Under the pieces are notes generated by a model. The model was not told the DNA's origin. It worked only from the letters and a program-made list of their open reading frames with translations, and did not search any database. 64,000 nt of DNA from Bacteroidales bacterium. Its GTDB lineage: Bacteria > Bacteroidota > Bacteroidia > Bacteroidales > WCHB1-69. Numbering within the stretch: position 1 is the stretch's first letter; every line of letters starts with the position of its first letter. Both the position numbers and the translations under genes were made by a program. Below, in pieces: positions 4,585-32,317 of this stretch. The DNA is taken from contig JAEEQA010000004.1 of the NCBI GenBank assembly GCA_016285085.1, positions 13,836 to 77,835 of the forward strand, written 5' to 3'.

Positions 4585-4614
4585 TGTAGAGACGCGATTC
4601 ATCGCGTCTCTACA
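4585..4614. repeat. Palindromic element copy 1 (TGTAGAGACG-CGATTCATCG-CGTCTCTACA); likely tyrS terminator hairpin
   Basis: Inverted arms GTAGAGACG/CGTCTCTAC with a self-complementary centre (CGAT..ATCG). Starts 8 bp after the tyrS stop. Confidence 0.85.
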
Positions 4615-4651
4615 AACGAAAGATGGTCGGCGGAATGATAGGACGGTGAAA

Positions 4652-5563
4652 TTATTCCTGCGCCAGCGCAAGAACCTCTTCCTCGGTGAGGCCGGAAATT
4701 TCCGAAATCATGGCTGGGGCAAGATCTTTGGCGAGCATGTTCCGGACAAGGAGGCGGCGTGCCTCTTCAATACCTTCCGCTCTGCCTTCCTCTCTCCCTT
4801 CATCATGTGCCAGCCTGCGGTTGTACTCGATCGCGTCTTTCACATCGTCGTACTCCAAAATGCTTTTTTCATACTCTTCTTTTTCCATGTCGCTCAGTTT
4901 TGACAGTTTGCACTCATCGTACAACTCCCGGAATGTGGTGTCCGCAACGGGGATGTCTCTATCCGACATCCGCCACATGTTCTTGATTGCGTAGCACCAT
5001 TTCTCTCTTGCGCCGGGGAGCTGCCCGAAATCCGTTTGGGCGGCAAATTTAGTCAAATCTATCAGAACAAACGCCACTTTTTCAGAAAATTTTTGGTTTT
5101 CGTCGTCCCGCAATGTCACCCGCTGCATGAACCGGTCACTGCCCTTCAGGTCCGGCAGTTCGAAATCGACAAGGATGATGGAGATGACTTTCGGGAAGTT
5201 GTACTTTCGGTCGCCCTTTTTCAGCGAGTTGCTGATGCTGCGCGCCGAGTACGCGATGACCCTGTCACGGATGAATTCCTGACTTGCCTTCTGCATCTCC
5301 ACGATGATCCTGTCGTCCTTTTTTGTGCTGCAGAACACGTTGTAGATCAGCCGTTTTTCCTTCTCCAAGAGCCCGAGCTGTTCCGTCGGTTTGTAGTCTA
5401 TATCCTTGATAGTGCCTATATATTCCTTCAGAAATGCGTTCAGGAACCGGATGAGGTTATTCTTATGTTCCTCCGTACCGAAAATACGCTTGAAACCGAA
5501 GTCGGTTAACAGGTTGATGGTTGCGCTCTCGATGCGGGCACTTTCGATTTTTTCATCTTCCAT
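4652..5563 (-). CDS. Rpn/YhgA-like PD-(D/E)XK nuclease family protein ('putative transposase', PDDEXK_2-like)
   Basis: The ORF track gives 4652..5605; the ATG at 5563 (MEDEKIES...) lies downstream of a -7 box. Shows 'TDFGFKRIFG', the 'IVEMQK' nuclease core, and a C-terminal 'EGREEGRAEG' helix. Paralogous to 33966..34871. Confidence 0.75.
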   Translation of the reverse strand: MEDEKIESARIESATINLLTDFGFKRIFGTEEHKNNLIRFLNAFLKEYIGTIKDIDYKPTEQLGLLEKEKRLIYNVFCSTKKDDRIIVEMQKASQEFIRDRVIAYSARSISNSLKKGDRKYNFPKVISIILVDFELPDLKGSDRFMQRVTLRDDENQKFSEKVAFVLIDLTKFAAQTDFGQLPGAREKWCYAIKNMWRMSDRDIPVADTTFRELYDECKLSKLSDMEKEEYEKSILEYDDVKDAIEYNRRLAHDEGREEGRAEGIEEARRLLVRNMLAKDLAPAMISEISGLTEEEVLALAQE

Positions 5564-5602
5564 GATATGATTTTTTGAGTGAATTAAAACAGAAACTGTC
5601 CG

Positions 5603-5610
5603 CAAAGATA
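5603..5610 (-). promoter_or_regulatory. Putative -7 box TATCTTTG (minus strand)
   Basis: TAnnTTTG match 40 bp upstream of the start at 5563. The identical octamer precedes the paralog at 33966. Confidence 0.45.
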
Positions 5611-5814
5611 CGGCGCTTGAAATGCATTTTCAAGTGCCGTTTTCTGCTATTTTTCTGAAAAACAAGGAATTAAAAAGATGCGGATTCCCGGCAGAAAGTG
5701 ACAAGGTTTGGGTCGAGAACCTGCAAATTTGTCAGAAAACAGGTTTTTGAAGGTGGTGCCGGGACGAAGTGTGAATTTCGGAAAATTTCGGAGAATGACA
5801 TGAAATCATGTACC

Positions 5815-5844
5815 TGTAGAGACGCGGTGCACCACGTCTCTACA
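5815..5844. repeat. Palindromic element copy 2 (centre CGGTGCACCA)
   Basis: Same arms. The inner GGTGCACC is a perfect palindrome, with one C.A mismatch next to the arms. Lies downstream of the minus-strand gene that ends at 5926. Confidence 0.85.
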
Positions 5845-5874
5845 ACAAAACGATATAAATTATATGTAACCTTT

Positions 5875-5905
5875 TGTAGAGACGCCATATTATGACGTCT
5901 CTACA
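5875..5905. repeat. Palindromic element copy 3 (centre CCATATTATGA)
   Basis: Same arms, with a near-self-complementary 11-nt centre. It is 30 bp from copy 2 and 21 bp downstream of the stop at 5926. Confidence 0.85.
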
Positions 5906-5925
5906 TTATTTATAATCCTGTCACA

Positions 5926-7083
5926 TTATTCCCGGAACAATTTCGAATGCACCGGGAAGACATCGGCCAATTCACCGGAATAGAAGAAATCGTTGCCGAG
6001 GACACCGAAGGTGTAGGTGATGCCGTTGACCGACACGTGCGAGCCGCCGCAGCGAGGTTCCGCGCTGGGTTTGGAGGCGGCGAAACCGAGGTTGAAAAGG
6101 GTACACAGGATGTCGGGGCGGTCGGCGATGCTGTAGCCGGCACGTTCCCACTGCAACATCGTCTGGTGCAGGATACACCCTGTATAGATGTACGAATAGA
6201 GATGGTTGCGATAATCCACCAAGCGGTTGAAACGAGCCAGCTCGATGTCTTCCACTTCGGTGGTGTCGTAATCCAGAATGTTTTCGTACTCCTTGCCCAT
6301 GTAGAAGACGGAGGTGGAGTCCTTCAGGTTGCGTTCGACCTTGGCGGCGGTGAAGTCCTTGATGCCGTTGACTCCGAAGGAGAAGGTGGATTGCACGCTC
6401 ATGACGGCGGGACCAAGGTAGCGTTTCACATCCTCCCGCTTGGAATTGAAGAGGCGGATCTGTTCGCCGACGGTGCAGGCCACGATGAGGCGCGGGTCCA
6501 CGCCGGTGAGTTCGGCTGCCTGCTTGATGGCCTTCTCGTCGCGGAGGATGGCCCGTTTCAGCACTAGCCAGCCGGAGTCGTTCATCCACGGGATGAGGTT
6601 GTCGGGCGTGAGCGACTGCGGGTGCTTGCGGTAGGCCGCCATCACATCGTCGAGAATCAGGCGGTACTGCTGCCCGATGGAGTCATCCTTAAGGTACATG
6701 TTGGCAGCATAGACCATGCGGTTCACGCACTGCGGGTCGTCGCTGTGACGGCTGGCCTCGTAAATCAGGTGCGCGTTCAACGGATACGATTTGCTGAGCA
6801 CGGCGAGGTTGAGGTAGTTCTCCATCCTTTCGGCAAAGAAAGCGGATGAATCCAGCACCGTTTCCCGCTGCTGGTAATCAGCCAGATAGCGGTTGTTCTT
6901 GTCGATGCCGCCGGCGTTGTTGGTGATGCCGACTTTATAGAGGCCCCACGCCGCCACCATCGCCAAACCGACACAAGCGAACAGATGGATGAAAATCTGG
7001 TAGATTTTCGACCGCGTTTTCAGCAAACGCCACGCCTTGAAAAGCGACTTTTTCTCTGATTTTCCTAAGGATTCCGTATTCAT
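5926..7083 (-). CDS. Hypothetical membrane-anchored protein
   Basis: The ORF track gives 5926..7119. The ATG at 7083 (MNTESLG...) is preceded by a -7 box. One N-terminal TM segment ('IFIHLFACVGLAMVAAWGLY'). No family recognised. Confidence 0.55.
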   Translation of the reverse strand: MNTESLGKSEKKSLFKAWRLLKTRSKIYQIFIHLFACVGLAMVAAWGLYKVGITNNAGGIDKNNRYLADYQQRETVLDSSAFFAERMENYLNLAVLSKSYPLNAHLIYEASRHSDDPQCVNRMVYAANMYLKDDSIGQQYRLILDDVMAAYRKHPQSLTPDNLIPWMNDSGWLVLKRAILRDEKAIKQAAELTGVDPRLIVACTVGEQIRLFNSKREDVKRYLGPAVMSVQSTFSFGVNGIKDFTAAKVERNLKDSTSVFYMGKEYENILDYDTTEVEDIELARFNRLVDYRNHLYSYIYTGCILHQTMLQWERAGYSIADRPDILCTLFNLGFAASKPSAEPRCGGSHVSVNGITYTFGVLGNDFFYSGELADVFPVHSKLFRE

Positions 7084-7105
7084 TTCCCCTTGAAAAAAAA
7101 CGGCG

Positions 7106-7113
7106 CAAACATA
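7106..7113 (-). promoter_or_regulatory. Putative -7 box TATGTTTG (minus strand)
   Basis: TAnnTTTG match 23 bp upstream of the start at 7083. Confidence 0.4.
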
Positions 7114-7172
7114 CAACAAAGTTTGTCAAGTTCATCAAGAATATAAAGTTTATCAAATTTTCAAAATTTGCG

Positions 7173-7180
7173 TACTTTTG
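7173..7180 (+). promoter_or_regulatory. Putative -7 box TACTTTTG
   Basis: TAnnTTTG match 20 bp upstream of the GTG start at 7200. Confidence 0.45.
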
Positions 7181-7199
7181 TCGCCTCAATTTTGAGTCT

Positions 7200-8060
7200 G
7201 TGAAAACAAAAATAATCCTGCTCCTTTTTCCCCTGTTTTCCGCTTTCTCCCTTTTCGGGCAGATGACGGCGGAGGAGATGCTGGCCAAGGGCGACAACTA
7301 TTACGAAGGGAAGAACGGGGTGGCCCGCAACCACGCCATGGCGGTGAAATGGTACCAGCAGGCGGCGGAAAAAGGAAACGCCGAGGCGCAGAACCAGTTG
7401 GGTTACTGCTACTTCCAAGGCGAAGGCATCCAGCAGGATTTTGAGGAAGCCCTGAAGTGGTTCAAGAAAGCGGCGGAGGGCGGCAGCGCCAAGGGACAGA
7501 CCAACCTCGCGGCATGCTACCACAAGGGCGAAACCGTGGAAAAGTCGTACGAGGAGGCTTTCAAATGGTACACCGCCGCGGCCAAGCAGGGGTACGCCAT
7601 GGCGCAGTTCAACCTCGGGCTCTGTTACGAAAACGGCGAGGGCACCGACACCTCCTTCACCGATGCCGTGAAGTGGTACCGCGCCGCCGCCGAACAGGGT
7701 CTTTCCGATGCACAGAACAACCTCGGGATGTGCTACGACAGCGGGCACGGCGTAGCGCAGTCATACACAGAAGCCGTGAAGTGGTACAAGCGTGCCGCCG
7801 ACAAAGGCAACACGATGGCCGAATACAACCTCGGCGTTTGCTACAGCAAGGGGCAGGGGGTGAACCTCTCCTACTCCAACGCCGTGAAATACTTCCGCAA
7901 GGCCGCCGACAAGGGGTTCGCCGATGCACAATACAACCTCGGTGTATGCTACTACCACGGTTACGCCGTCACCAAGTCGGAGCACGAAGCCGCCAAGTGG
8001 TGGAGCCGCGCCGCCAAGCAGGGGCACAAGGGCGCCATCGACGCGCTGATGCAGCTGTAA
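7200..8060 (+). CDS. Sel1-repeat (SLR/TPR-like) secreted protein
   Basis: Signal peptide followed by about seven 36-aa repeats of the form 'A.KWY.KAAEQG.A.AQ.NLG.CY..G.GV'. Confidence 0.85.
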   Translation: MKTKIILLLFPLFSAFSLFGQMTAEEMLAKGDNYYEGKNGVARNHAMAVKWYQQAAEKGNAEAQNQLGYCYFQGEGIQQDFEEALKWFKKAAEGGSAKGQTNLAACYHKGETVEKSYEEAFKWYTAAAKQGYAMAQFNLGLCYENGEGTDTSFTDAVKWYRAAAEQGLSDAQNNLGMCYDSGHGVAQSYTEAVKWYKRAADKGNTMAEYNLGVCYSKGQGVNLSYSNAVKYFRKAADKGFADAQYNLGVCYYHGYAVTKSEHEAAKWWSRAAKQGHKGAIDALMQL

Positions 8061-8089
8061 ATTTTCACTCCTGTTTGCAAAAAAAGATG

Positions 8090-8097
8090 TATTTTTG
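8090..8097 (+). promoter_or_regulatory. Putative -7 box TATTTTTG upstream of the RND operon
   Basis: TAnnTTTG match 73 bp upstream of the ATG at 8170. Confidence 0.35.
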
Positions 8098-8169
8098 CAA
8101 ATTATTTTGTCCTGAATCAGGGTGAATATATACATGTCTGCAAACAACATAAACTATTAATAAACTGAT

Positions 8170-9294: not shown

Positions 9295-9297
9295 GCC

Positions 9298-13955: not shown

Positions 13956-13964
13956 TTTCCATTT

Positions 13965-14840: not shown

Positions 14841-14859
14841 GAATTTTAAAATTTTATCG

Positions 14860-14867
14860 TATTTTTG
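14860..14867 (+). promoter_or_regulatory. Putative -7 box TATTTTTG
   Basis: TAnnTTTG match 25 bp upstream of the ATG at 14893. Confidence 0.4.
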
Positions 14868-14892
14868 CGCCTCGTTTTGCAAAACAAATCTT

Positions 14893-15114: not shown

Positions 15115-15124
15115 TCTTGCGGAA

Positions 15125-15622: not shown

Positions 15623-15647
15623 AATCTATTTCTCCAGACGGTAATTT

Positions 15648-15676
15648 CACTTGTTGCAAGTGGTTTCGTTTTTTTG
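15648..15676 (+). terminator. Weak candidate intrinsic terminator
   Basis: CACTTG-ttg-CAAGTG hairpin followed by GTTTCGTTTTTTT, 26 bp after the exonuclease stop. The stem is only 6 bp. Confidence 0.3.
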
Positions 15677-15772
15677 CTTTTCTTGTCCTCCTCGAAACTC
15701 AACAGGAGGAAACCAAGCGGCAAAGAGACAAAAATATACGATACACGGCTTCAACCATTCTTGGAAATTTTG

Positions 15773-23200: not shown

Positions 23201-26200
23201 CATCCAGATCAACAAACGTTTCGGGGTCACCCTCGACTCGAAATCATTGGCCAAGACGGGTACTTTGCAAAGCATTGAAAACGAAATCCTAAACGCGATG
23301 CTCTCAGGAAATGTCGCTGTTCATTCCAGCGAGTCTGGGCAGTCTGTTCAGACAGAACAGGCCACTCCGACAGGTCCGGTTCCCTTGAGCTACGCGCAGA
23401 TGGGTGTCTATGTGGATTGCATGAAACAGCCCACGTCCACGGTCTATAACATTCCTTCACTCATCCGTTTTCCCAAAGGAACCGACGTGCTGCTGCTTGC
23501 CAAATCTGTGGAGACCCTCGTCAAGGCGCACCCGCAGTTCTTTGTGCATTTTGACAGCGAAGGAGGCGAAATCGTACAGATTGTTGACACCAATCAACCG
23601 GTTACCGTCACAAAGAGCCAGTTAAGTGAAACGGAACTGGAAAAATACAAGGTGAAGTTTGTAAGACCGTTCAACTTGCGGCAGGGACCGCTGTACCGCA
23701 TGGAAATCGTCACCACCGGGCAGGATGTTTACCTCTTGGCCGATGTCCATCACCTGATTTTCGACGGCGGTTCCTTCGACCTGTTCCTGAACCAGTTGTG
23801 CGACCTGATGAACGGCAAAGAGATCGAAGCCGAGGCCATCAACTATGCGGCTTTTGTCGCCGACGAGAAAGCGGCTGAAAACAGTCCGAGCTACCTTGAG
23901 GCCAAGAACTTCTTCAACGAGCGTTTGGGTAAAGTGGAGGGCGTCACCGAAGTGCCTGCCGACCTGACCAATCCCGTGGAGCAAGGCACGGTCAGCGAGG
24001 CTTTCTGCAAGCTGGATTTCGATGCGATGGAGGAATTTTGCAAGAAAAACAATCTCTCACCCGCGCACCTCACCCTGGCGGCGGTGTTCTATGCGCTCTC
24101 GCGTTTCACCAACAACGAACAGATTTGCATCACCACCATCAGCAACGGCCGCTCTGACCTGCGCATCCGCAACACGACGGGCATGTTTGTCAACACGCTG
24201 GCCCTGAGTGCCCAGATTGGCGACCAAAGCGTGATGGACTTCCTGAAGGAGACCAGCCAGAACTTCAACGAGACTTTGACCCATGAAAAATATCCGTTTG
24301 CGCAAATTGCCGCCGACTACGACCTGTCGGCCGAAATCATGTTTGCCTATCAGATGGGTGTTATTGACCAATATCTTGTCAATGGTCAAAAACTTGAAAT
24401 AGAGTCTCTTGAGCTGAACACACCGAAGTTCCGTATCGCTTTCTACATTCAAGAAAAAGAAGGTGTGCCGGGCGTGGTGGTGGAATACGACAATGGTCGC
24501 TACAGCCAGGAACTGATGCAAAGTCTGGCGCAGTCGGTCAGCAATGCAGTCAATGCTTTCATCCGCCAGCCGGAGTCGGCGTTGCAGCATATTTCCCTGC
24601 TGGATGCCGAACAGACCGCTTTGCTCGACAGCTTCAACCAGACGGCTGTGCCTTACGACGACACCCAGACCATTGTTTCGCTGTTCCGCAAGCAGGTGGA
24701 GCAAACGCCCGACAATCTGGCGGTGGTGTATCATGATAATAAATACACCTATCGCGAGGTGGATGAGATTTCGGAGCGCATCGCAGGCTATGTCGTCGCA
24801 CAAGGACTTGGGAACGAAGATGTCGTTTCCGTGCTGATTCCGCGCTGCGAATGGATGGCCATCGTTTCGTTGGGCGTTTTGAAGGCCGGCTGCGCCTACC
24901 AGCCCCTCGACCCGAGCTATCCCGCCGAACGTCTGAACTTTATGATGAAAGACGCCGCTGCAAAACTGCTCATTGCCGATGAAGAATTGCGTCCCATCGT
25001 AAATGAATATGAAGGAAAGGTGTTGTTGACAAAGGATATTGCGACATTGAACCCTGTAGAGACGTTTCATGAAACGTCTCTACATGAAACGTCTCTACAA
25101 CCGACGCCGTCCTCCCTTTTCATCATGCTTTACACCTCCGGTTCCACGGGAACGCCGAAGGGTTGTCAGCTGGAACATGGCAACTTGGTGGCTTTCTGCC
25201 ATTGGTATCAGCGCCATTATGGGCTGACGGCCGCCGACCGCGTGGCGGCGTATGCCAGCTATGGTTTCGACGCCTGCATGATGGACCTTTACCCGGCGTT
25301 GACGTGCGGTGCCTGCGTCCACATCATTGGGGATGACATCCGCCTGAACCTGCCCGACCTCAACAACTATTTCAATGAGCAGGGCATCACCCACTCGTTC
25401 ATCACCACGCAGGTGGGCTACCAGTTTGCCACGAATGTGGACAACCACTCACTGCGTTGCTTCGCGGTGGGTGGCGAGAAGCTGTCCGCCCTCAACCCGC
25501 CGACAAACTACAAGATGTACAACGGCTACGGTCCGACGGAGTGTACCATCTTCACCACCAACTACTGGGTGAAGGATTACGAGCTGGACATCCCCATCGG
25601 CAAACCGCTGGACAACCTGAAACTCTATATCGTTGACAAGCAGTTTAATAGATTGCCTCTCGGGGCTGCCGGCGAACTATGGGTCACGGGACCGCAGGTG
25701 AGCCGTGGCTACCTGAACCGTCCCGAAAAGACGGCCGAGACCTACCTGAAGAACCCCTTCAGCGATGACCCGAAGCACGCCCGCGTCTATCGCACCGGCG
25801 ACATCGTGCGCTACCTCCCTGACGGCAACATCCAGTTTGTGGGGCGCAAGGACGGTCAGGTGAAAATTCGCGGCTTCCGCATCGAGCTGAAGGAGGTGGA
25901 AGCTGTCATCCGCCAGTATCCGGGCATCAAGGACGCCACCGTACAAGCCTTTGATTATGAGAACGGTGGAAAGTACATTGCCACCTATATTGTCAGCGAT
26001 GAGAAAGTTGACATCAAACAGCTCAATGCTTTCATCGGGCAGCAGAAACCGCCCTACATGATTCCGGCGGCGACGATGCAGATTGACAGCATCCCGCTGA
26101 ACCAGAACCAGAAGGTGAACCGCAAGGCACTGCCCACGCCCGTCATCCAAGCCAGCGACCGTGAGTATGTGGCACCGGCCAATTCGGCGGAGGAGCTGTT

Positions 26201-27602
26201 CTGCCGTATCTTCGGTGAGGTGCTCGCTCTCGACAAAGTCGGCGCCACCGACAACTTCTTCGATCTCGGCGGCACCTCTCTGATGGTGACCCGCGTCATC
26301 ATCGAGGCCGACAAGCAGGGGGTGCATGTGGCCTACGGCGACGTCTTCGCCAATCCCACCCCGCGCAAACTCGCCGCACTCGTCATGGGAGGCATTGTTG
26401 TCAATACCGACGATGAGGAGGTGACCCGATTTGATTATTCTTCCATCAACAATTTACTGGGTAACAATACATTGGATAGCTTCCGCAATGGCGAGCGGCA
26501 ATCCTTGGGCAACGTTCTGCTCACCGGTGCCACAGGTTACCTGGGCATTCATGTGTTGCAGGAACTGATCCAGTCGGATGCGCAGAACATCTACTGTCTG
26601 GTACGCGACAAGAACCTGGATGGCGCCGAGCACCGGTTGAAAACATTGCTGTTCTACTATTTTGAATCCACCTACGACGAGCTGTTCGGCAACCGTCTTC
26701 ACATTGTCCTTGGCGATGTCACCAACGACCTGACCGCTCTTGTCGAAGCGAAGATTGACACGGTGTTCAACTGTGCCGCTGTCGTAAAGCACTTCAGTGA
26801 AGGCACCGAGATTGAGGATGTGAATGTGGGAGGCGCGCAGCGTTGTGTGGAGCTCTGTCTGAAGACCGGCGCACGGTTGGTACACATTTCCACGTACAGC
26901 ACCAGCGGGCTCAACGTCAACGACACCATGGCTTCCGACTACATCTTCACCGAGCAGCGGCTTTACGACGGTCAGTACCTCGGAAACCAGTACGTTCATT
27001 CCAAGTTCATGGCCGAACGCATCGTACTGCAATCGATAGTAGAGGACGGGCTGTCGGCCAAGGTGATCCGTGTCGGTAACCTGGCGGCACGCACCAGCGA
27101 CGGTGAGTTCCAGATCAACTTCTCCACCAACTCCTTTATGGGGCGTATCAAAGTCTTTAACATGCTGGGCTGCTTCCCCTATTCTCTGTACGAGAGTAAA
27201 GTGGAGTTTTCACCCATTGATGAGGTGGCGCATGCCATCATTCTGCTCAGTTCCACACCCAAGGAGTGCTGTGTGTTCCATGCTTACAACAGCCACGAGC
27301 AGTTCCTCGGCGACGTCCTCAGCGGATTCAACAACCTGGGCACAAACATCCGTCTCGTGGAGGACGAGGAGTACAACGCCACCATGGAGAGTGCGGGCAA
27401 CGATCCCCAGAAGGCCAAGACGCTTTCCAGCTTGCTCGCTTACCAAGATATGGCCCACGGCATGAAAGTCAAACAGGTGGTCGTTAGTAACCAGTACACC
27501 ACGCAGGTGCTCTATCGTCTGGGCTTCAAATGGTCGCCCACCACGTGGGACTACGTCGATCGCATGTTGAGTGCCATCAGCGGGTTGGGATTCTTTGATT
27601 AG
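20268..27602 (+). CDS. Bimodular non-ribosomal peptide synthetase, C-A-T-C-A-T-R (terminal thioester reductase)
   Basis: 2444 aa. Two 'HHxxxDG' C-domain motifs (HHIISDG, HHLIFDG). Two adenylation cores ('LYTSG(T/S)TGTPKG', 'YGPTE', 'GELWV.GPQVSRGY', 'YRTGD', 'GRKDGQVKIRGFRIEL'). Two carrier sites ('GLTS', 'LGGTS'). The C-terminal SDR carries 'LLTGATGYLG' and 'YVHSK'. Confidence 0.93.
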   Translation: MDTMKNIAPLSQSQLGIYAECVHHENEIFYNLPFLYVFDGSLDADRLCRAIEATLKAHSTFFTRIELSDDGEPLQTIDLEKEEFSLSVEQVTDLEAEKRKFIEPFKLHGGRLFHTKVMRDAEHVYWFFDMHHIISDGSSYHIIVCDVETAYNGGTLAPEEMTMQELALAEAEMRKTPAFEEGKQWYAQNFDCGDTFTQLMPDLEIPEQTDANKHRVLNTDMDRVDAFCKTNGIKKSTFFTSAFSFLLAKYNNDQESLFTTVFNGRTDPKFQHSVGMTVKTLPVYAKFTEETTVLDFMKAGEEQMIGCRKHDLYSYTDIMTDLNLQTNAIFAWHGLILDFTELMGKPMEAIQLRKHNEGVSFYLMAYYVGKKYHIKAEYNANEYSETLVDQFMESYEAVLEGFLSQTLLCDIDICTESQRALLDRFNQTDKELDMNATIVSKFREQVAKTPDNIAVVYQDKRFTYKELDEISDRIAAYIHGKGLHEEDVVSVLIPRCEWMPIVSMGVLKAGCAYQPLDPTYPSERLNFMMQDASVRLLIADPELRGIVDQYTGEVLFTTDIKTLETVETFHETSLQQPNSSSLFIMLYTSGTTGTPKGCQIVHRNIVAFCEWYHHRFNLTADCRVSAYASFGFDANMMETYPALTCGATLYIIPEELRLDLLALNEYFEQEQITHGFMTTQVAYQFATSIENHCLHYLLTGGEKLAPLTPPANYTLVNLYGPTESTVCITSFDVTKPMKDIPIGSALDNTKLYIVDKAGHRLPVGVAGELWVAGPQVSRGYLNRPEKTAEVYIDNPFDSSEKYAHIYRTGDIVRYLPDGNIQFVGRKDGQVKIRGFRIELKEVEGIILQFPGIKDATVQAFDEEGGGKFIAAYIVSDEQIDIDALNNFIMEEKPPYMVPAVTMQIDRIPLNQNQKVNKKALPKPEKKAAEAVVESNVPMNVLEKEIHDIIAKIINTEDFGVTTVLGYVGLTSIMAIKLAIQINKRFGVTLDSKSLAKTGTLQSIENEILNAMLSGNVAVHSSESGQSVQTEQATPTGPVPLSYAQMGVYVDCMKQPTSTVYNIPSLIRFPKGTDVLLLAKSVETLVKAHPQFFVHFDSEGGEIVQIVDTNQPVTVTKSQLSETELEKYKVKFVRPFNLRQGPLYRMEIVTTGQDVYLLADVHHLIFDGGSFDLFLNQLCDLMNGKEIEAEAINYAAFVADEKAAENSPSYLEAKNFFNERLGKVEGVTEVPADLTNPVEQGTVSEAFCKLDFDAMEEFCKKNNLSPAHLTLAAVFYALSRFTNNEQICITTISNGRSDLRIRNTTGMFVNTLALSAQIGDQSVMDFLKETSQNFNETLTHEKYPFAQIAADYDLSAEIMFAYQMGVIDQYLVNGQKLEIESLELNTPKFRIAFYIQEKEGVPGVVVEYDNGRYSQELMQSLAQSVSNAVNAFIRQPESALQHISLLDAEQTALLDSFNQTAVPYDDTQTIVSLFRKQVEQTPDNLAVVYHDNKYTYREVDEISERIAGYVVAQGLGNEDVVSVLIPRCEWMAIVSLGVLKAGCAYQPLDPSYPAERLNFMMKDAAAKLLIADEELRPIVNEYEGKVLLTKDIATLNPVETFHETSLHETSLQPTPSSLFIMLYTSGSTGTPKGCQLEHGNLVAFCHWYQRHYGLTAADRVAAYASYGFDACMMDLYPALTCGACVHIIGDDIRLNLPDLNNYFNEQGITHSFITTQVGYQFATNVDNHSLRCFAVGGEKLSALNPPTNYKMYNGYGPTECTIFTTNYWVKDYELDIPIGKPLDNLKLYIVDKQFNRLPLGAAGELWVTGPQVSRGYLNRPEKTAETYLKNPFSDDPKHARVYRTGDIVRYLPDGNIQFVGRKDGQVKIRGFRIELKEVEAVIRQYPGIKDATVQAFDYENGGKYIATYIVSDEKVDIKQLNAFIGQQKPPYMIPAATMQIDSIPLNQNQKVNRKALPTPVIQASDREYVAPANSAEELFCRIFGEVLALDKVGATDNFFDLGGTSLMVTRVIIEADKQGVHVAYGDVFANPTPRKLAALVMGGIVVNTDDEEVTRFDYSSINNLLGNNTLDSFRNGERQSLGNVLLTGATGYLGIHVLQELIQSDAQNIYCLVRDKNLDGAEHRLKTLLFYYFESTYDELFGNRLHIVLGDVTNDLTALVEAKIDTVFNCAAVVKHFSEGTEIEDVNVGGAQRCVELCLKTGARLVHISTYSTSGLNVNDTMASDYIFTEQRLYDGQYLGNQYVHSKFMAERIVLQSIVEDGLSAKVIRVGNLAARTSDGEFQINFSTNSFMGRIKVFNMLGCFPYSLYESKVEFSPIDEVAHAIILLSSTPKECCVFHAYNSHEQFLGDVLSGFNNLGTNIRLVEDEEYNATMESAGNDPQKAKTLSSLLAYQDMAHGMKVKQVVVSNQYTTQVLYRLGFKWSPTTWDYVDRMLSAISGLGFFD
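20280..21557 (+). other. NRPS condensation domain C1 (N-terminal, starter-like position)
   Basis: Approximately aa 5-430; HHIISDG at aa 131-137 (nt 20658-20678). Boundaries approximate. Confidence 0.7.
21576..23042 (+). other. NRPS adenylation domain A1
   Basis: Approximately aa 437-925. A3 'LYTSGTTGTPKG', A4 'FDANMME', A5 'NLYGPTESTVCIT', A10 'NQNQKVNKKAL'. Boundaries approximate. Confidence 0.75.
21963..21990. repeat. Palindromic element copy 4 (centre TTTCATGAAA), in-frame inside NRPS A1
   Basis: A perfect 28-bp palindrome, GTAGAGACGTTTCATGAAACGTCTCTAC. It is translated as VETFHETSLQ (aa 566-575), immediately N-terminal to the A3 core motif. Confidence 0.9.
23079..23297 (+). other. NRPS carrier (T/PCP) domain T1
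   Basis: Approximately aa 938-1010. The attachment site is 'GYVGLTSIMAIKL' (Ser971, nt 23178-23180), which deviates from the canonical LGGxS. Confidence 0.6.
23373..24662 (+). other. NRPS condensation domain C2
   Basis: Approximately aa 1036-1465; HHLIFDG at aa 1161-1167. Confidence 0.7.
24669..26147 (+). other. NRPS adenylation domain A2
   Basis: Approximately aa 1468-1960. A3 'LYTSGSTGTPKG', A4 'FDACMMD', A5 'NGYGPTECTIFTT'. Long stretches are near-identical to A1. Confidence 0.75.
25055..25099. repeat. Palindromic element copy 5 (centre TTTCATGAAA) plus a 15-bp partial duplication, in-frame inside NRPS A2
   Basis: The full palindrome at 25056-25083 is followed by a repeat of its right half, ATGAAACGTCTCTAC (25084-25098). 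Translated as VETFHETSLHETSLQ (aa 1597-1611), at the position homologous to copy 4. Confidence 0.9.
26175..26387 (+). other. NRPS carrier domain T2
   Basis: Approximately aa 1970-2040. Canonical 'FFDLGGTSLM' (Ser2004). Confidence 0.75.
26514..27599 (+). other. NRPS terminal thioester reductase (R) domain
   Basis: Approximately aa 2083-2444. Rossmann 'TGATGYLG' and catalytic 'Y(2242)VHSK(2246)'. Confidence 0.8.
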
Positions 27603-27636
27603 GGGGATAAAAAGGGAATATTGCTGAAAAAGGTCC

Positions 27637-29328
27637 TTATTCCTTCACCACCTTCCCCACGGATATCACCTTGCCGTCGTCCACCAATTTCACGAAATAG
27701 ATGCCGTTGGCGTAACGGGACAGATCAATCTGTACGGCCTGTAGAGACGTTTCATGAAACGTCTCTACAATATCCAACATCCTGCCAAACACGTCAAACA
27801 CCTGGATTTCAGGGTTAAGGGACAAGGTTTCCGGAGCCAGTTGGACGGTGGCGATGCCCGTGGTGGGGTTCGGATAGAGGATGAGGTCCGTGGTGCTGTT
27901 TTCGGTGATACCGACTATGGCATTTAGACAGCTGGTGGTGTCGGTACATCCGTTATAGGTGATAATGCAAGCGTATGAACCAGATGTCACGGGTTCAAAC
28001 AACCGTTCGGTAGCATTTTCAACCCACTCATTGGTTCCACAATCAATCCATTGGTATTCAGCGTTTTCTTGAGCTGCTTCCATTCTAATTGCGTACCATT
28101 GTGTACCAATCCAAGTAAGTCCTGTATTGATGCGGGTCACTGTCAAGGTCATGATGACAAGGCTGTCGCAGTCATTCGAGGAAGTCAGCATTACGCTGTC
28201 CGTGCCGTCGTTCTCAAACACAATACCGTTCCATGTATAGGGAAGTTCGCTCTCGCAAATGGTGGCTTCAACCAATTCGGTTACCGGTGTGTATATGGTA
28301 AGGTGCAGTATGATAGTGCTGTCGCTGTTCTCGATAGGATGCGTATAGTCTCCGCTGGAGGTGAGTTCTTCGCCGTACCAGTCGAAACTGCCACAGGCAA
28401 CGGCAGTGGTGTCAATAATGACAGGAGGTTCCACTCCCGCTGCCCAAAGCCGGAGGTTGTCGAGATAAAGGGACGAGCCCTGTTGCGGTTCGGAGTTGGC
28501 CGAAGAGAAGATCATAATCACCAGCGAATCGGCCTCCACATATTCAACGGTGCTGTCGATTTCGGAAAGCGGGGTATAGACAATTTCGAAGGGGGTGTAG
28601 GCCGAAACGTCCGTCAGGTTTGCGGTGTATCCGCCGCCCACGACCTCGCGCTGCTGCGTGGCAGGATTGTACTTGGACCCCAGCACCAGAATGCCGCCCT
28701 TGTCCCCGCCAACGCCCGAGGTGTATTTGTAATAGCCCGTCATCCGGCCAAAAGCCTCTCCGTTCAAGGGAATACCGCCGTCAATGATACTGTTGAGATC
28801 GACGCTGTCAAAGACACCCAGCAACAGGGGAAGACTGTCGAAATTGTTGGTGAAATCTTCTAACATCGGCAGCAGCTGGTCGATATCCACCGCGCCTGTG
28901 GTCAAAACCGTCGGGAACACCGTGGTGGTCAGCCACTCGTCTAAAGAGGATGAAGCCAGATTGTAAACGGTGGAATTGACGATGTCGGAGAGCATGAAAC
29001 TCTGCAGCTTGACCGCATGGGAACCCTCGGGCACGCCGGTGGTTTCGTCGGAAACTTTCAGTAGCGGAAGGTCCGTGTTCACATTGACCGTCATTCCGAA
29101 ATAGGTGACACTCTCGTTCACGGGATAGGTGGGGTAATTCCAGCCCGTCGGATACGTATAGCTATCGTAAACAGGCAAGGAGATAAAACCGCCCACGGAT
29201 GCGCTGTACCCATTGCCTGTTGACCAGTTCTCAAAACCGCTGTTTGTCAGAGGAATGGAATTTTGTCCCGTCGTCTTCACCGACAGGAGAAAAAAGAGGG
29301 GTAAAAGGAGAAGGATAAAACGTTTCAT
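27637..29328 (-). CDS. T9SS C-terminal-sorting-domain cargo protein (secreted, function unknown)
   Basis: The ORF track gives 27637..29370, but its first 14 codons derive from palindrome copy 7. The ATG at 29328 gives the signal peptide 'MKRFILLLLPLFFLLSVKTTGQ'. The N-terminal region is 'NSGFENW'-type. The C-terminus 'LYPNPTTG....VFDVFGR......IDLS.YANGIYFVKL...K' matches the Por_Secre_tail pattern. Confidence 0.78.
   Translation of the reverse strand: MKRFILLLLPLFFLLSVKTTGQNSIPLTNSGFENWSTGNGYSASVGGFISLPVYDSYTYPTGWNYPTYPVNESVTYFGMTVNVNTDLPLLKVSDETTGVPEGSHAVKLQSFMLSDIVNSTVYNLASSSLDEWLTTTVFPTVLTTGAVDIDQLLPMLEDFTNNFDSLPLLLGVFDSVDLNSIIDGGIPLNGEAFGRMTGYYKYTSGVGGDKGGILVLGSKYNPATQQREVVGGGYTANLTDVSAYTPFEIVYTPLSEIDSTVEYVEADSLVIMIFSSANSEPQQGSSLYLDNLRLWAAGVEPPVIIDTTAVACGSFDWYGEELTSSGDYTHPIENSDSTIILHLTIYTPVTELVEATICESELPYTWNGIVFENDGTDSVMLTSSNDCDSLVIMTLTVTRINTGLTWIGTQWYAIRMEAAQENAEYQWIDCGTNEWVENATERLFEPVTSGSYACIITYNGCTDTTSCLNAIVGITENSTTDLILYPNPTTGIATVQLAPETLSLNPEIQVFDVFGRMLDIVETFHETSLQAVQIDLSRYANGIYFVKLVDDGKVISVGKVVKE
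27640..27890 (-). other. T9SS type-A C-terminal sorting domain (interrupted by a 10-aa palindrome-encoded insert)
   Basis: The last ~83 aa. Boundaries approximate. Confidence 0.7.
27741..27768. repeat. Palindromic element copy 6 (centre TTTCATGAAA), in-frame inside the T9SS sorting domain
   Basis: The same perfect 28-bp palindrome as copies 4 and 5. On the minus strand it again reads VETFHETSLQ. It lies about 140 bp beyond the convergent NRPS stop. Confidence 0.9.
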
Positions 29329-29358
29329 TTGGGAAATGATTAGGGTTTTGTTTAAAAT

Positions 29359-29386
29359 GTAGAGACGCAAAATTTTGCGTCTCTAC
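29359..29386. repeat. Palindromic element copy 7 (centre CAAAATTTTG), intergenic
   Basis: A perfect palindrome, GTAGAGACGCAAAATTTTGCGTCTCTAC. It sits 16 bp downstream of the stop at 29402 (minus strand) and 31 bp upstream of the start at 29328. Confidence 0.9.
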
Positions 29387-29401
29387 AAATGTTACGGTTA
29401 T

Positions 29402-30601
29402 TTATTTTTCAATCGGCAGCGGTTCGTCGATGCGCTCGTTCCACGGGAGGCCGTATTTCCCGATTTCAGCGAGGAACGGATCCGGGTCGAACTGTTCGAC
29501 GTTGAACACGCCCGTGCCCTTCCATTGGCCGGTAAGGATCATCTTGGCACCGAGCATGCAGGGAACGCCGGTGGTATAGGAAACGGCCTGTGCGCCCACC
29601 TCCTTGAAACATTCGGCGTGGTCGCAGTTGTTCCAGATGTAGTAGGTGCGCTCCTTGCCGTCCTTGATGCCGCGCATCTGGCAGCCGATGGAGGTCTGTC
29701 CCTTGTAGCCTTCGCCCAAGGAGGAGGGCTCCGGTAGAACGGCCTTCAGGAACTGCAGCGGCACGATTTCCTTGCCCTCGTAATTGATGGGCTTGATGGA
29801 GGTGAGCCCCACCTCCTGCAGCACGTTCAGCACCGTAAGGTACTTCTGGCCGAAGGTCATCCAGAAACGGCCCCGCTTGATGGTGGGATAGTTCTTCACC
29901 AGCGATTCCAGTTCCTCATGGTAGAGCAGATAGGATTCCCTTTCGCCGATATTGGGATATTCAACGGATTTATGGATGCTCATCGGGTCGATTTCCACCC
30001 ACTGGCCGTTCTCCCAGTACTTGCCGCGCTGGGTGATTTCACGGATGTTGATTTCGGGGTTGAAGTTGGTGGCGAAAGCCTTGCCGTGGTCGCCGGCGTT
30101 GCAATCGACGATGTCGAGGTAGTGGATTTCGTCGAAGATGTGCTTGGCGGCGTAGGCGGTATAGATGCTGGTGACGCCCGGGTCGAAGCCGCAGCCGAGG
30201 AGGGCCATGATGCCGGCGTCCTTGAAGCGGTCTTGATAGGCCCACTGCCACTTGTACTCAAACTTGGCCACGTCCTTGGGTTCGTAGTTGGCGGTATCCA
30301 TATAGTTGGTGCGGGTGGCGAGGCAGGCGTCCATCAGCGGCAGGTCCTGATACGGGAGGGCGACGTTGATGAGCAGGTCCGGTTTCTCTTTCTCCAAGAG
30401 GGCGATGGTTTCCGGCACGTTGTCGGCATCCACCTGTGCTGTGCTGATGTTCGGTTTGCCGATGGCTGCCGCCAGCTTGTCGCATTTGGCTTTCGTGCGG
30501 CTCGCAATCACGATTTCAGAAAAAACTTCGGGAACGGAAGCACACTTGTGTGCCACCACTGCGCCGACACCACCGGCGCCGATGATTAAGACTTTTGCCA
30601 T
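29402..30601 (-). CDS. Carboxynorspermidine/carboxyspermidine dehydrogenase (saccharopine-dehydrogenase family)
   Basis: 399 aa. The N-terminal Rossmann segment 'KVLIIGAGGVGAVVAHK...IVIASRT..KC' and overall length match the CANSDH/CASDH proteins I recall from Vibrio and Bacteroides. Confidence 0.78.
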   Translation of the reverse strand: MAKVLIIGAGGVGAVVAHKCASVPEVFSEIVIASRTKAKCDKLAAAIGKPNISTAQVDADNVPETIALLEKEKPDLLINVALPYQDLPLMDACLATRTNYMDTANYEPKDVAKFEYKWQWAYQDRFKDAGIMALLGCGFDPGVTSIYTAYAAKHIFDEIHYLDIVDCNAGDHGKAFATNFNPEINIREITQRGKYWENGQWVEIDPMSIHKSVEYPNIGERESYLLYHEELESLVKNYPTIKRGRFWMTFGQKYLTVLNVLQEVGLTSIKPINYEGKEIVPLQFLKAVLPEPSSLGEGYKGQTSIGCQMRGIKDGKERTYYIWNNCDHAECFKEVGAQAVSYTTGVPCMLGAKMILTGQWKGTGVFNVEQFDPDPFLAEIGKYGLPWNERIDEPLPIEK

Positions 30602-30648
30602 AATTATTTGGGTTTATATTGTTAGAATCTTCATTAGGTTGCAGGCGG

Positions 30649-30656
30649 CAAAAATA
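30649..30656 (-). promoter_or_regulatory. Putative -7 box TATTTTTG (minus strand)
   Basis: TAnnTTTG match 48 bp upstream of the start at 30601. Confidence 0.4.
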
Positions 30657-30758
30657 CACAAAATTTCGGTTGGATGACCAGAAAAACAAAGGGGCCTCGG
30701 TTTGCACCTCAGCCCCACAAAAAACAAGGTATGATCTCAGGGTATAGGAAATAGGGGT

Positions 30759-30793
30759 TAGTTTTCAGTTCTCAGTTTTCAGTTTTCTGTTTA
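30759..30793 (-). repeat. Heptamer tract on the minus strand: TAAACAG-AAAACTG-AAAACTG-AGAACTG-AAAACTA, starting at the hydG stop
   Basis: Period 7. The stop triplets (upper coordinates 30793, 30781, 30774, 30767, 30760) cover all three minus-strand frames. Confidence 0.8.
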
Positions 30794-32245
30794 GAAATAC
30801 AGGTCCCGTTCCCCCTTCTTAATCCGCTCGATGCGGGCCAGCAGCTCGTCGCGGAACTGTTCGTCCACGTTGCAGAGGTTGTTCTCGATCACCTTCCAGC
30901 CCTTGGCCGCCACCTCGGGGGTAGCATAGTCCACCAGGTACTCGCTGAGCGTGAGGATGGCGTTGGGCGTGCAGTAACGCTTGATGAAGCCCGGCACGCT
31001 GAACTCCATGAAGTGCTCGCCGGTGCGGCCCAGACGGTAACAGGCCGTGCAGAAGCTGGGGATGTAGTTTCCGTCCAACAGCTCTTCGATGATGTCGCCG
31101 AGGTTGCGGTCGTCTCCAATCTTGAACTGCTCGCGGTGCAGGTTCTGGTTCTCCTGCTTGTCGCTGTTCTTCTCGGTCTCTTCGTGATGGTACTTGTAAT
31201 CACCGATCTGGAGGTTGGTGCCGCCGTCAATCTGCGAGATACCGTACTGGATGGCTTTGGCGCGGAAGTCGGCGTTCTCGCGGGCGGTGAGAATCATGCC
31301 GGTGTAGGGCACGGCCAGACGGAAGATGGCGATGATCTTCTCGAAGGTTTCGTCATCCACAAAGTATTTCTTGTCGATGTCCAGACCGGAGGCATCCTTG
31401 ATGCGCGGGAACGAGATGGTGTGCGGTCCCACGTTGAAGCAGGCTTCCAGGTGGTTGGTGTGGCGGATCATCGCCATCACCTCGAAACGCCAGTCGTACA
31501 GACCGAACAGGATACCGAGACCGTTGTCGTCGATGCCGGCCTGCTGGGCGCGGTCCATGGCGGTGAGGCGCCAGTTGAAGTCACCCTTGATGGTGTTGGC
31601 GGGGTGGTACCACGAGTAAGCCTCCGGGTGGTAGGTCTCCTGGAAAATCTGGTAGGTGCCGATGCCGGCCTCTTTCACCGTGCGGAAGCCCTCCACATCG
31701 AGCGGTGCGGCGTTGATGTTCACGCGGCGGATGGAGCCGTTGCCCTTGTGCACCGAATAGGCGAGGCGGGTGGTGTGGGCGATGAACTCCGGCGAATACT
31801 TCGGCGACTCGCCATAAACGAGGATGAGTCGTTTCTGACCGTCATCTTCCAAAGCCTCAATGTTATGCACGAACTCCTCATCGGTGAGGGTGGTGCGCAC
31901 CTGCTCGTGGTTGGAAGAGCGGAAACCGCAATATTTGCAGTTGTTCACGCAGTAGTTGCCCACGTACAGGGGGGCGAACAGCACGATGCGGTTGCCGTAG
32001 ATGCGGCGTTTCAGCTCGCGGGCACCTTCCTTGATCTCCTCCACGAGAGCGGGGTCGGTGGTGTTGATGAGCACGGCGGTCTCCTCGAGCGTGAGGCGCT
32101 CCTTGTTCAGCGATTTCTGAATCAGCGCGCGCACCCGCTCGGGTGTGCTTTTCGTGTTGTTGATGTAATCCCAAATTTCTTCAGGATCGATAAAAGGCTT
32201 GCCGATTTCGTCGGGAATCCGACATTTTTCTGGATTGAATTTCAT
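30791..32245 (-). CDS. hydG: [FeFe]-hydrogenase H-cluster maturase, radical-SAM tyrosine lyase HydG
   Basis: 484 aa. Carries the radical-SAM motif 'CVNNCKYC' and the HydG-specific C-terminal CX2CX22C motif ('CTAC' + 22 residues + 'C' in 'RYCTPNA'), which a ThiH would lack. Confidence 0.85.
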   Translation of the reverse strand: MKFNPEKCRIPDEIGKPFIDPEEIWDYINNTKSTPERVRALIQKSLNKERLTLEETAVLINTTDPALVEEIKEGARELKRRIYGNRIVLFAPLYVGNYCVNNCKYCGFRSSNHEQVRTTLTDEEFVHNIEALEDDGQKRLILVYGESPKYSPEFIAHTTRLAYSVHKGNGSIRRVNINAAPLDVEGFRTVKEAGIGTYQIFQETYHPEAYSWYHPANTIKGDFNWRLTAMDRAQQAGIDDNGLGILFGLYDWRFEVMAMIRHTNHLEACFNVGPHTISFPRIKDASGLDIDKKYFVDDETFEKIIAIFRLAVPYTGMILTARENADFRAKAIQYGISQIDGGTNLQIGDYKYHHEETEKNSDKQENQNLHREQFKIGDDRNLGDIIEELLDGNYIPSFCTACYRLGRTGEHFMEFSVPGFIKRYCTPNAILTLSEYLVDYATPEVAAKGWKVIENNLCNVDEQFRDELLARIERIKKGERDLYF

Positions 32246-32289
32246 GGTTGTTTATTTGTTTAATTGTTGATTTGTTTATCTGTTGATTC

Positions 32290-32317
32290 GTAGAGACGCA
32301 AAATTTTGCGTCTCTAC
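32290..32317. repeat. Palindromic element copy 8 (centre CAAAATTTTG), between the TM1266-like gene and hydG
   Basis: Identical 28-mer to copy 7. Coordinates are anchored on ORF-track positions (hydG start 32245; ORF 32306; stop 32323). Confidence 0.9.

Follow-up and report, generated by a model that had tools for sequence, protein, structure and literature searches.

Palindromes in the window

The window analysed here, a 64-kb stretch of DNA, taken as a whole, from an uncultured member of the Bacteroidales represented by metagenome contigs alone, contains eight exact matches to GTAGAGACG-N8-12-CGTCTCTAC, a pattern matched in 0 of 100 shuffled versions, so that the eight dispersed copies of the original prediction are borne out. 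The spacing actually found is GTAGAGACG-N10/11-CGTCTCTAC, which gives an element of 28-29 bp with 0 copies expected by chance, and all eight fall within 28 kb. The copies, for which no strand is given, and the genes that bear on them are as follows:

4586-4613: palindrome copy with centre CGATTCATCG, between the convergent tyrS (+) and PDDEXK_2 (-) genes
4652-5563 (-): PD-(D/E)XK 'transposase' gene (Rpn family, PDDEXK_2)
5816-5843: palindrome copy with centre CGGTGCACCA, one mismatched pair; doublet member 1, 3' of the 5926(-) gene
5876-5904: palindrome copy with 11-nt centre CCATATTATGA; doublet member 2
20268-27602: gene for an NRPS, containing two copies
21963-21990: palindrome copy with centre TTTCATGAAA, within NRPS adenylation domain 1, where it is in frame and occupies the linker directly before the LYTSGTTG motif
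25056-25083: palindrome copy with centre TTTCATGAAA, at the homologous site in NRPS adenylation domain 2
25084-25098: tandem duplication of a half-palindrome (half-REP), ATGAAACGTCTCTAC, 15 bp, adding HETSL in frame
27637-29328 (-): gene for a T9SS-tail protein, containing one copy
27741-27768: palindrome copy with centre TTTCATGAAA, lying in frame within the part of the 27637-29328(-) gene that encodes the C-terminal T9SS sorting domain
29359-29386: palindrome copy with centre CAAAATTTTG, 3' of the saccharopine-dehydrogenase (-) stop, upstream of the T9SS-tail gene
30791-32245 (-): hydG
32290-32317: palindrome copy with centre CAAAATTTTG, separating hydG (-) from the TM1266-like gene (-)
32323-32580 (-): TM1266-like gene
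33966-34871: second PDDEXK_2 paralog, without an adjoining palindrome

The 9-nt arms had been called invariant, and indeed all 16 arms of the eight copies are identical; allowing up to three arm mismatches revealed no decayed copies in the window. The T...A flank noted for most copies is present in six of the eight (it is missing at 21963 and 32290), and across 169 copies T at -1 (84/169) and A at +1 (78/169) are the only preferences that stand out. A conserved CT cleavage dinucleotide 5' of GTAG was considered and rejected, CCT being found in four of the eight window copies and the dinucleotide being unsupported across the 169. A 17th exact arm, at 25090-25098, is part of the 15-bp tandem duplication at 25084-25098; the longer copy originally placed at 25055-25099 is explained by this duplication of the right half of copy 25056-25083.

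All eight copies begin with GTAG, the tetranucleotide recognised by RAYT enzymes, and end with its complement CTAC, so that either strand would fold into a hairpin of 13-14 bp that is identical for both and has GTAG as its 5' foot. The predicted hairpins have 13-bp stems and 4-nt loops, with energies of -9.5 to -14.6 kcal/mol as DNA (z -4 to -9) and -21 to -23 kcal/mol as RNA; copy 4586 reaches -14.6 kcal/mol as DNA and -22.4 kcal/mol as RNA, and copy 29359 has -20.8 kcal/mol as RNA. Rfam has nothing at the palindromes, and a single tRNA (43095-43168) is all that reaches the gathering score in the window.

Covariation of the centres

The centres are self-complementary or nearly so, as originally listed: five of the eight are perfect palindromes and the other three pair at four of five positions. 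Tabulating centre sequence against self-complementarity across genomes, as had been proposed, gives the same picture, with 57 different centre sequences and 66 perfect palindromes among 92 ten-nt centres, against 0.09 expected. In 59 distinct 28-mers from many genomes, double-sided changes affect 5/5 centre pairs, and the observed level of covariation was reached in 0 of 500 shuffles; what covariation maintains is a 13-14-bp hairpin or a perfect palindrome, in agreement with the earlier suggestion. Even the innermost two positions, for which pairing in a hairpin is impossible, follow this self-complementarity: the central dinucleotides are self-complementary in 31/33 cases and are nearly all AT or GC. 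A model of hairpin recognition alone does not account for these two positions, and palindromy through the hairpin apex may be a new detail.

Association with RAYT-like genes

We scanned genomes for the exact-arm pattern and examined neighbouring genes within 2.5 kb. The pattern is found at at least 120 genome loci, mainly in Bacteroidota, Cyanobacteria and Chloroflexota, and also in several other phyla. The sole gene family that recurs within 2.5 kb is RAYT-like, at six loci among the at least 120 listed, with the palindrome either flanking the gene or in frame inside it. The two members that were scanned matched only NCBIfam NF047646 'REP-associated tyrosine transposase' (E 1e-13 to 1e-15), at scores below the curated cut-offs (50-58 versus 80 bits for NCBIfam; Pfam Y1_Tnp is also below), and the only PDB match of a six-sequence profile was E. 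coli TnpA_REP (4ER8).

In the reciprocal direction, 80 metagenome loci were picked by RAYT-like protein similarity alone and searched for GTAG...CTAC palindromes with arms of at least 8 bp. Such palindromes are present at 52 of the 80, inside the gene or mostly within ~120 bp, the arm being GTAGAGACG in 50 palindrome instances; the other 28 loci have none by this definition. The motifs of the RAYT-like alignment, PNH[LF]H, WQ and YI-x-[ND]NP, are the signature of TnpA_REP subclass 2.4, for which NH[IFV]H / WQ / YIxNNP have been described (PMC6006769). No RAYT-like gene lies within the 64-kb window, nor near the pattern in the at least 120 IMG/VR viral stretches that contain it.

The original prediction could not name the family. 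On the reciprocal association tests, the copies are very probably 'double-foot' REPs (repetitive extragenic palindromes) tied to an HUH/Y1 RAYT, namely TnpA_REP of subclass 2.4. Alongside the observed anatomy, hairpin potential, covariation, extragenic bias and RAYT-like gene association in other genomes, we infer that a RAYT acts on the window copies and that the source genome encodes its gene.

Copies at gene ends

The five intergenic copies had been placed at gene ends, and each lies 5-82 nt downstream of a stop codon: copy 4586 is 8 nt past that of tyrS, the 5816/5876 doublet 21-82 nt past that of the 5926(-) gene, and copy 29359 15 nt past that of the 29402(-) saccharopine-dehydrogenase gene. 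An extragenic bias is also seen in other genomes, where 17 of 113 copies fall in a reading frame that stays open for 60 codons or more to either side and the other 96 are outside such frames.

One may consider that selection keeps the palindromes at gene ends as primarily regulatory RNA or DNA elements of the host, be they terminators, insulators or stabilisers of mRNA 3' ends. This would agree with the location of five out of five intergenic copies and with the RNA hairpins of about -21 to -23 kcal/mol that transcripts would form; moreover, the PDDEXK_2 strand reads TTTTATT after copy 4586, and REPs of E. coli reportedly stabilise mRNA and in some cases act as terminators (PMC6006769, PMC3733652). 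The likeness to Rho-independent terminators, a stable GC-containing hairpin directly after stop codons, ends there: the window element lacks a consistent U-tract and belongs to a dispersed family with identical arms that is also found in coding DNA. Terminator-like sites are no commoner than in shuffles, and no T-run is present on the transcribed strand for the tyrS, 5926(-), 29402(-) or TM1266-like genes. Copy 32290 lies inside the co-oriented TM1266-hydG pair, yet in a related taxon, with a HydG that clusters with that of the window at 90% identity, the corresponding spacer is 28 bp long and has no palindrome. Since three copies are translated as well, and neither the identical 9-nt arms across phyla nor the RAYT link would be explained, we regard selection for regulation as rather unlikely, and the terminator or insulator role first suggested finds no support as a general function. 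Regulatory action could be a secondary effect.

Copies inside coding sequence

Three copies are within coding sequence, as predicted, two in the NRPS and one in the T9SS-tail protein. They share the centre TTTCATGAAA and the reading frame, which is the sole open one for this centre, and encode the peptide VETFHETSLQ. The DNA surrounding the two NRPS copies is only ~65-70% identical between the modules, while the REP is identical at 28/28 positions. Recent gene conversion between the modules was rejected because no high-identity tract surrounds the REP, and independent insertion is inseparable from long-term maintenance. A clean insertion of 10 amino acids was likewise rejected: in PDB structures and in the closest database homologs (at most 67% identity, from Muribaculaceae) the linker is variable and only ~3 amino acids shorter. 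All that is certain is that this stretch of NRPS coding sequence is occupied by a full REP. Literature searches with the encoded peptides as strings gave no matches.

Comparison of related strains

Presence and absence at orthologous loci, a comparison that had been proposed originally, reveal both gain and loss between relatives. Where copy 4586 sits, strains L123/L124 have one REP, with the centre GGGCGCGCCC; the right flank of copy 5816 has its ortholog in the single REP present in L123/L124 and in L212-L215. The L212-L215 ortholog of copy 5876 is GTAGGGATGTCATACTATGGCATCCCTAC, in which arm pairs 5/25 and 8/22 are changed on both sides. At the site after tyrS the centre is wholly different, always in compensated pairs, in strains whose tyrS DNA is 95-98% identical to that of the window; such a fully compensated replacement at one orthologous site in close strains may be a new detail. 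Strain L216 contains half-REP tandem arrays similar to that at 25084-25098. For copies 27741, 29359 and 32290 the near-identical strains L125-L128, at 99.8-100% identity, are uninformative.

The same site invites the question of whether a mobile unit has the palindromes as its ends or targets, with the PDDEXK_2 (Rpn family) gene at 4652-5563(-) as its driver; this gene is bracketed by copy 4586 and the 5816/5876 doublet. A 1230-bp segment comprising one palindrome and this gene is missing from L123/L124 and L212-L215, and is present again in L216 between REP clusters. However, a tblastn search with the window protein found no match in the 120 palindrome-bearing genome loci listed, the paralog at 33966-34871 has no adjacent palindrome, and more distant strains hold at the tyrS site a PDDEXK_3 gene flanked by a different repeat. 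Given this absence elsewhere and the PDDEXK_3 swap, the site resembles a hot spot for insertions more than a REP-nuclease unit, and we consider the PDDEXK_2 explanation very improbable.

We find it hardly credible that the element serves as a restriction-type target or as an operator bound by a dimeric protein, with half-sites read in duplex DNA. In favour of this, two invariant 9-bp half-sites, in which the type IIS site CGTCTC/GAGACG is found, face each other at fixed spacing with perfect dyad symmetry, and symmetry at the duplex level continues through the apex; but an uncontacted spacer need not be self-complementary and yet is, the copies lie after genes and in coding sequence rather than at promoters, and the same element occurs across phyla beside and inside RAYT genes.

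Relation to known elements

Double-foot REPs, of the form 5' GT[AG]G ... C[TC]AC 3', are tied to TnpA_REP subclass 2.4 (Quentin et al. 2018, PMC6006769), which corresponds to RAYT Group 4 (Bertels et al. 2017, PMC5581495) and is common in Cyanobacteria and Bacteroidetes while also occurring in various phyla (PMC6006769; PMC5581495). Subclass 2.4 REPs are also found in frame inside genes, including in-frame insertions between HuH and Y (PMC6006769). The elements described here are like those of Quentin et al. in their GT[AG]G/C[TC]AC ends, long hairpin, host range and partner-protein motifs, and differ from the cases in both studies in that no cognate gene is seen in the window. Since the palindromes match a known kind, the finding is in this respect ordinary. 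The searchable article texts, which exclude figures and additional files, mention neither the arm GTAGAGACG and its occurrence in several phyla nor palindromy through the apex and turnover of centres at an orthologous site; as literature search strings, GTAGAGACG/CGTCTCTAC retrieved only unrelated primer-containing papers, and the arm is not in the supplements of Di Nocera 2013 (PMC3733652).

The GTAG-tagged REP superfamily consists of short, high-copy palindromes with complementary stem changes within families, located mostly downstream of genes with some copies inside them, and RAYT genes flanked by such REPs form REPtrons (Di Nocera 2013, PMC3733652). Tag, stem covariation and location are alike in the window element and in this superfamily, including E. 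coli REP/BIME with TnpA_REP (4ER8). In contrast, a classical REP has a single, unpaired GTAG foot, its stem is imperfect or bulged, and the element as a whole is strand-asymmetric, whereas here the foot is mirrored, giving a near-perfect palindrome that is the same on both strands.

Rickettsia palindromic elements (RPE) and cyanobacterial small dispersed repeats (SDR), the latter reportedly described by Elhai in 2008, are small palindromic repeats tolerated in frame in protein-coding genes. The window copies resemble both as in-frame palindromic repeats; RPEs, at about 100-150 bp, are unlike the window element in size. MITEs, which are 70-300 bp long and have terminal inverted repeats around a non-palindromic body and target-site duplications, were rejected, the window element being 28-30 bp, all palindrome, and having no flank duplication, only the T(-1)/A(+1) preference. 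RPE-4 and RPE-6 have been equated with CGTC-tagged REPs, for which no transposase is known and which have an unpaired terminal CGTC and a CCA-like tail, with a stem of 8-9 bp that starts in A/T pairs and carries a 4-5-nt loop (Di Nocera 2013, PMC3733652). This identity was rejected as well: the window element has GTAG/CTAC at its ends and lacks a CCA tail, and its only CGTC is paired, within the right arm.

A possible mechanism

Group 2/3 RAYTs do not cleave without GTAG, and cleavage is impaired when a perfect stem contains a mismatch (PMC8266576); in the literature searched these are the only enzymes characterised, and it yielded no biochemistry of subclass 2.4. By analogy, the enzyme of the double-foot REPs would bind the folded single-stranded hairpin, needing the GTAG foot and an intact stem, and would cut and rejoin single-stranded DNA beside it, by which copies would spread and homogenise. 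The foot-proximal arm GTAGAGACG may be read as sequence and the distal stem as structure only, so that the latter would drift by compensated changes or be swapped between copies. Most copies would then persist in intergenic DNA directly after stop codons, and the few that persist within genes would be limited to an open frame and to tolerant linkers; an effect of the RNA 3' hairpin, if any, would be secondary.

A more speculative idea, which we think improbable, is that subclass 2.4 RAYTs turn over double-foot REPs by a symmetric mechanism undescribed for Group 2/3 enzymes. Either both feet would be cleaved and the whole 28-30-nt hairpin swapped, or fold-back or cross-fork copying would regenerate a perfect palindrome. 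Such a mechanism would explain the self-complementary apex, the compensated centre change after tyrS and the half-element tandem duplications. If it is true, the 9-nt arm common to Bacteroidota, Cyanobacteria and Chloroflexota would represent a conserved enzyme-DNA code or horizontal spread of RAYT-REP systems.

Implications

The main value of the finding is for annotation, as the palindromes yield spurious short ORFs and 10-amino-acid inserts (VETFHETSLQ, RDAMHRVST and similar) in proteins of Bacteroidales, Cyanobacteria and Chloroflexi, and the REPs should be masked or labelled. REP copies also mark hot spots of recombination or insertion, at one of which the PDDEXK_2 cassette has been gained or lost. 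The window offers a compact example of Group 4 REPs, with copies in an NRPS adenylation-domain linker and a T9SS sorting domain, and its strain-level turnover of centres, together with palindromy through the apex, could guide biochemistry on subclass 2.4 enzymes.

Palindrome copies and identity

A pattern search of the whole window for GTAGAGACG-N8-12-CGTCTCTAC recovered, in place, all eight copies of the original prediction (8/8), with no match in 100 dinucleotide-preserving shuffles of the window. The arms are indeed invariant (16 of 16 identical), and a search of the whole window found no further copies with up to three arm mismatches; the T...A flank ascribed to most copies is present in six of the eight, extending them to 30 bp. 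The centres are perfectly palindromic in five copies; in the other three, a single position is left unpaired. Folded as single-stranded DNA, the copies form 13-bp stems with 4-nt loops (-9.5 to -14.6 kcal/mol, z -4 to -9); RNA folds in the orientation of the transcript are at -21 to -23 kcal/mol.

We identify these palindromes as double-foot REPs of REP-associated tyrosine transposase (RAYT) Group 4, i.e. TnpA_REP subclass 2.4. REPs of this subclass include "double foot" families, with GT[AG]G at the 5' end and C[TC]AC at the 3' end, and its enzymes carry the motifs NH[IFV]H, WQ and YIxNNP (Quentin et al. 2018, PMC6006769), to which PNH[LF]H, WQ and YI-x-[ND]NP correspond in our protein alignment of RAYT-like sequences (A1). 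The subclass equals Group 4 of Bertels et al. 2017, known from 61 species in 17 classes (PMC5581495). GTAG-tagged REP families whose stem variation is complementary, and which favour sites downstream of genes with occasional intragenic copies, were described by Di Nocera et al. 2013 (PMC3733652). The element is therefore of an already described kind; its exact arm string was not found in the texts and supplements searched.

Gene context

Genes around the palindromes in the window
3291-4577 (+), tyrS
4652-5563 (-), PD-(D/E)XK_2 / Rpn-family gene (PDDEXK_2)
5926-7116 (-), gene of unknown function
20268-27602 (+), two-module NRPS with a reductase at the end
27637-29328 (-), T9SS-tail protein
29402-30601 (-), saccharopine dehydrogenase
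30791-32245 (-), hydG
32323-32580 (-), TM1266-like gene

The window stems from an uncultured Bacteroidales, has a G+C content of 51.5% and encodes a T9SS sorting domain; a protein named "Bacteroidales bacterium" falls into the cluster (90% identity or more) of its exact HydG protein, and among NRPS homologs the closest come from Muribaculaceae. Most of the window's final 19 kb is taken up by a single ORF of 6340 aa (44954-63976, -).

The intergenic copies do lie at gene ends, as had been proposed, all five being 5-82 nt downstream of a stop codon. The three copies placed inside coding sequence turn out to be translated in one shared frame: all have the centre TTTCATGAAA and read GTA GAG ACG ..., giving VETFHETSLQ. 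One of the other two frames contains TAG and the other TGA (the latter due to the TTTCATGAAA centre), so that only the VETFHETSLQ frame can persist in genes.

In the NRPS, the tolerant linker immediately before the A3 motif certainly contains a complete REP. The 28-bp REP is identical in both adenylation domains, whose DNA is only ~65-70% identical around it, and comparison of the two domains revealed no conversion tract. In distant and closer homologs alike, the linker at this site is variable and only ~3 aa shorter; a clean 30-bp insertion is not demonstrable. A search for the 9-mer alone found an additional right arm in the window (25090-25098); it belongs to a 15-bp stretch (25084-25098) in which the 25056 copy has its right half duplicated in tandem, in frame within the NRPS (HETSL). 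Such half-REP tandem duplications (one arm plus half the centre, period 15-19 nt) also occur in the strain locus L216 (~4297-4340 and 5540-5620), and suggest that slippage, or a switch of template, takes place at the palindrome.

Association with a RAYT-like gene

An exact-arm scan of one genome per species yielded at least 120 loci, those listed being mostly from Bacteroidota, Cyanobacteria (Nostocales, Coleofasciculaceae) and Chloroflexota, with scattered matches in Acidobacteriota, Desulfuromonadales, Spirochaetales, Planctomycetota, Omnitrophota and others. We clustered every ORF within 2.5 kb of the palindromes among the matches listed, and the sole recurrent neighbour family was a protein of 180-240 aa, present at six loci. 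Its only NCBIfam match, in two members scanned, was "REP-associated tyrosine transposase" (E 1e-13 to 1e-15, under the curated cut-off); Pfam Y1_Tnp was matched weakly by three members scanned, and a profile of the six sequences had one match only among solved structures, the E. coli TnpA_REP 4ER8. At these loci the palindrome flanks the RAYT-like gene or sits in-frame within it, past the HUH motif, and in L022 the gene, of 179 aa, has two identical REPs, one on either side.

Reciprocally, metagenome contigs were scanned with nothing but the protein alignment. A relative was encoded in 571 of 600 candidate stretches, and 52 of the best 80 RAYT-like loci carried a GTAG...CTAC palindrome with arms of at least 8 bp, either within the gene or mostly no more than ~120 bp away. 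Arms in the best 80 loci were GTAGAGACG (50 instances), GTAGAGACA (14) and GTAGGGACG (5). Taken together, the two tests indicate that the association holds in both directions. No RAYT-like gene is present within the 64-kb window.

BIME-like REP clusters were observed in two of the RAYT-linked loci, one adjoining the gene (L152, 120-700; three tandem units of two REPs each, with differing centres, GATAATTATC and CAATGCATTG) and one with five REP variants around it (L186, 1240-1940). In RAYT-like genes that lack an intact REP inside (L112, 4928-5575; L053; L104), the same linker position (A1 columns 125-145) still shows short remnants resembling VST/VET, with a second, decayed copy (THGRAS) in the L112 gene, suggesting that one site of the gene has seen insertion and decay more than once. 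Predicted viral contigs (IMG/VR) contain the exact-arm pattern as well, in at least 120 stretches (L221-L340), with 150 instances and 53 perfect centres among the matches listed; the 1.06 Mb of these listed stretches contain no RAYT-like gene.

Covariation of the centres

Arms are set by the search pattern and are uninformative on covariation. The genome loci listed (at least 120) contain 130 instances, 92 with 10-nt and 32 with 11-nt centres. Among these matches the 92 ten-nt centres comprise 57 distinct sequences; 66 are perfect palindromes, versus 0.09 expected, and just three form two or fewer of the five pairs. For every one of the five centre pairs, 20-35 of the 59 distinct 28-mers are changed on both sides; double-sided cells number 134 versus 41.5 in shuffles (none of 500 shuffles reached 134), and the signal is lost when the partner column is slid. 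The prediction that the centres covary was thus correct: it is pairing, not sequence, that is preserved.

Self-complementarity extends to the apex. The two innermost pairs are self-complementary in 88% and 78% of the genome set (matches listed), and the central dinucleotide is so in 31 of 33 distinct 28-mers of an independent RAYT-linked set (L129-L208; A3 columns 13-16), with AT in 21, GC in 9, TA in 1 and CG in none. Stem stability fails to account for this, since neighbouring bases are unable to pair with each other in a hairpin. One idea is that both strands may have to be the same substrate, with a preference for certain loop bases in addition; another would be a symmetrising copying step.

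Strain turnover after tyrS

Arrangements downstream of tyrS in the window and related strain loci
Window, L121, L122 (98.6-100% DNA identity to the window in the shared region): REP CGATTCATCG, PDDEXK_2 gene, REP CGGTGCACCA, REP CCATATTATGA
L123, L124 (tyrS 98.3%, L123): 1230-bp "REP + gene" segment absent; single REP, centre GGGCGCGCCC
L212-L215 (tyrS 95.2%, L212): single REP, centre TGCCATGGCA
L216 (tyrS 95.4%): PDDEXK_2 gene between half-REP tandem-repeat clusters; GTGG foot
L217-L220 (tyrS ~91%): no REP; PDDEXK_3 gene with CGCAGA-rich tandem repeats on its flanks

Comparison of strains revealed both gain or loss of REPs and change of centre after tyrS. Between L123 and L212 the centre differs at 6 of 10 positions, which make up three compensated pairs. 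The L212-L215 ortholog of the 5876 copy keeps the centre core and has two arm pairs altered on both sides; a third pair does not form in either version. At a background divergence of 2-5%, differences so complete and always symmetric may better fit replacement or conversion by other family members than mutation in single steps.

The spacer is a strain-variable hot spot (window 4586-5815; L123 2454-2481; L212 4298-4325; L216 4290-5640; L217-L220 3790-4860), in which close strains have either a REP-bracketed PDDEXK_2 (Rpn-family) gene or no cassette. A second PDDEXK_2 paralog (33966-34871, +; 43% identity to the first) has no REPs nearby; the L126 locus (6346-6636) departs from the window within it, at ~34238, suggesting a strain rearrangement.

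Possible roles: terminator or transposase substrate

The terminator or insulator role originally proposed is not supported as the primary one. Across genomes, 96 of 113 copies among the matches listed are outside long open frames; this is the classical extragenic bias of REPs, such as would follow from the loss of most intragenic insertions. Against this role, terminator-like sites are not more frequent than in shuffled sequence, and the only T-run lies beside copy 4586, on the strand of the PDDEXK_2 gene. Moreover, the TM1266-hydG copy is within a pair of co-oriented genes, and in a related taxon (HydG in the same 90%-identity cluster) the 28-bp TM1266-hydG spacer has no palindrome, nor was one found in 13 kb.

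For RAYT Groups 2 and 3, the folded single strand is the substrate of the enzyme, and cleavage needs GTAG and is impaired by a mismatch in a perfect stem (PMC8266576). By analogy, the subclass 2.4 enzyme would likewise act on the folded strand. Effects at the RNA level are possible but would be side effects, not the reason for which the family exists.
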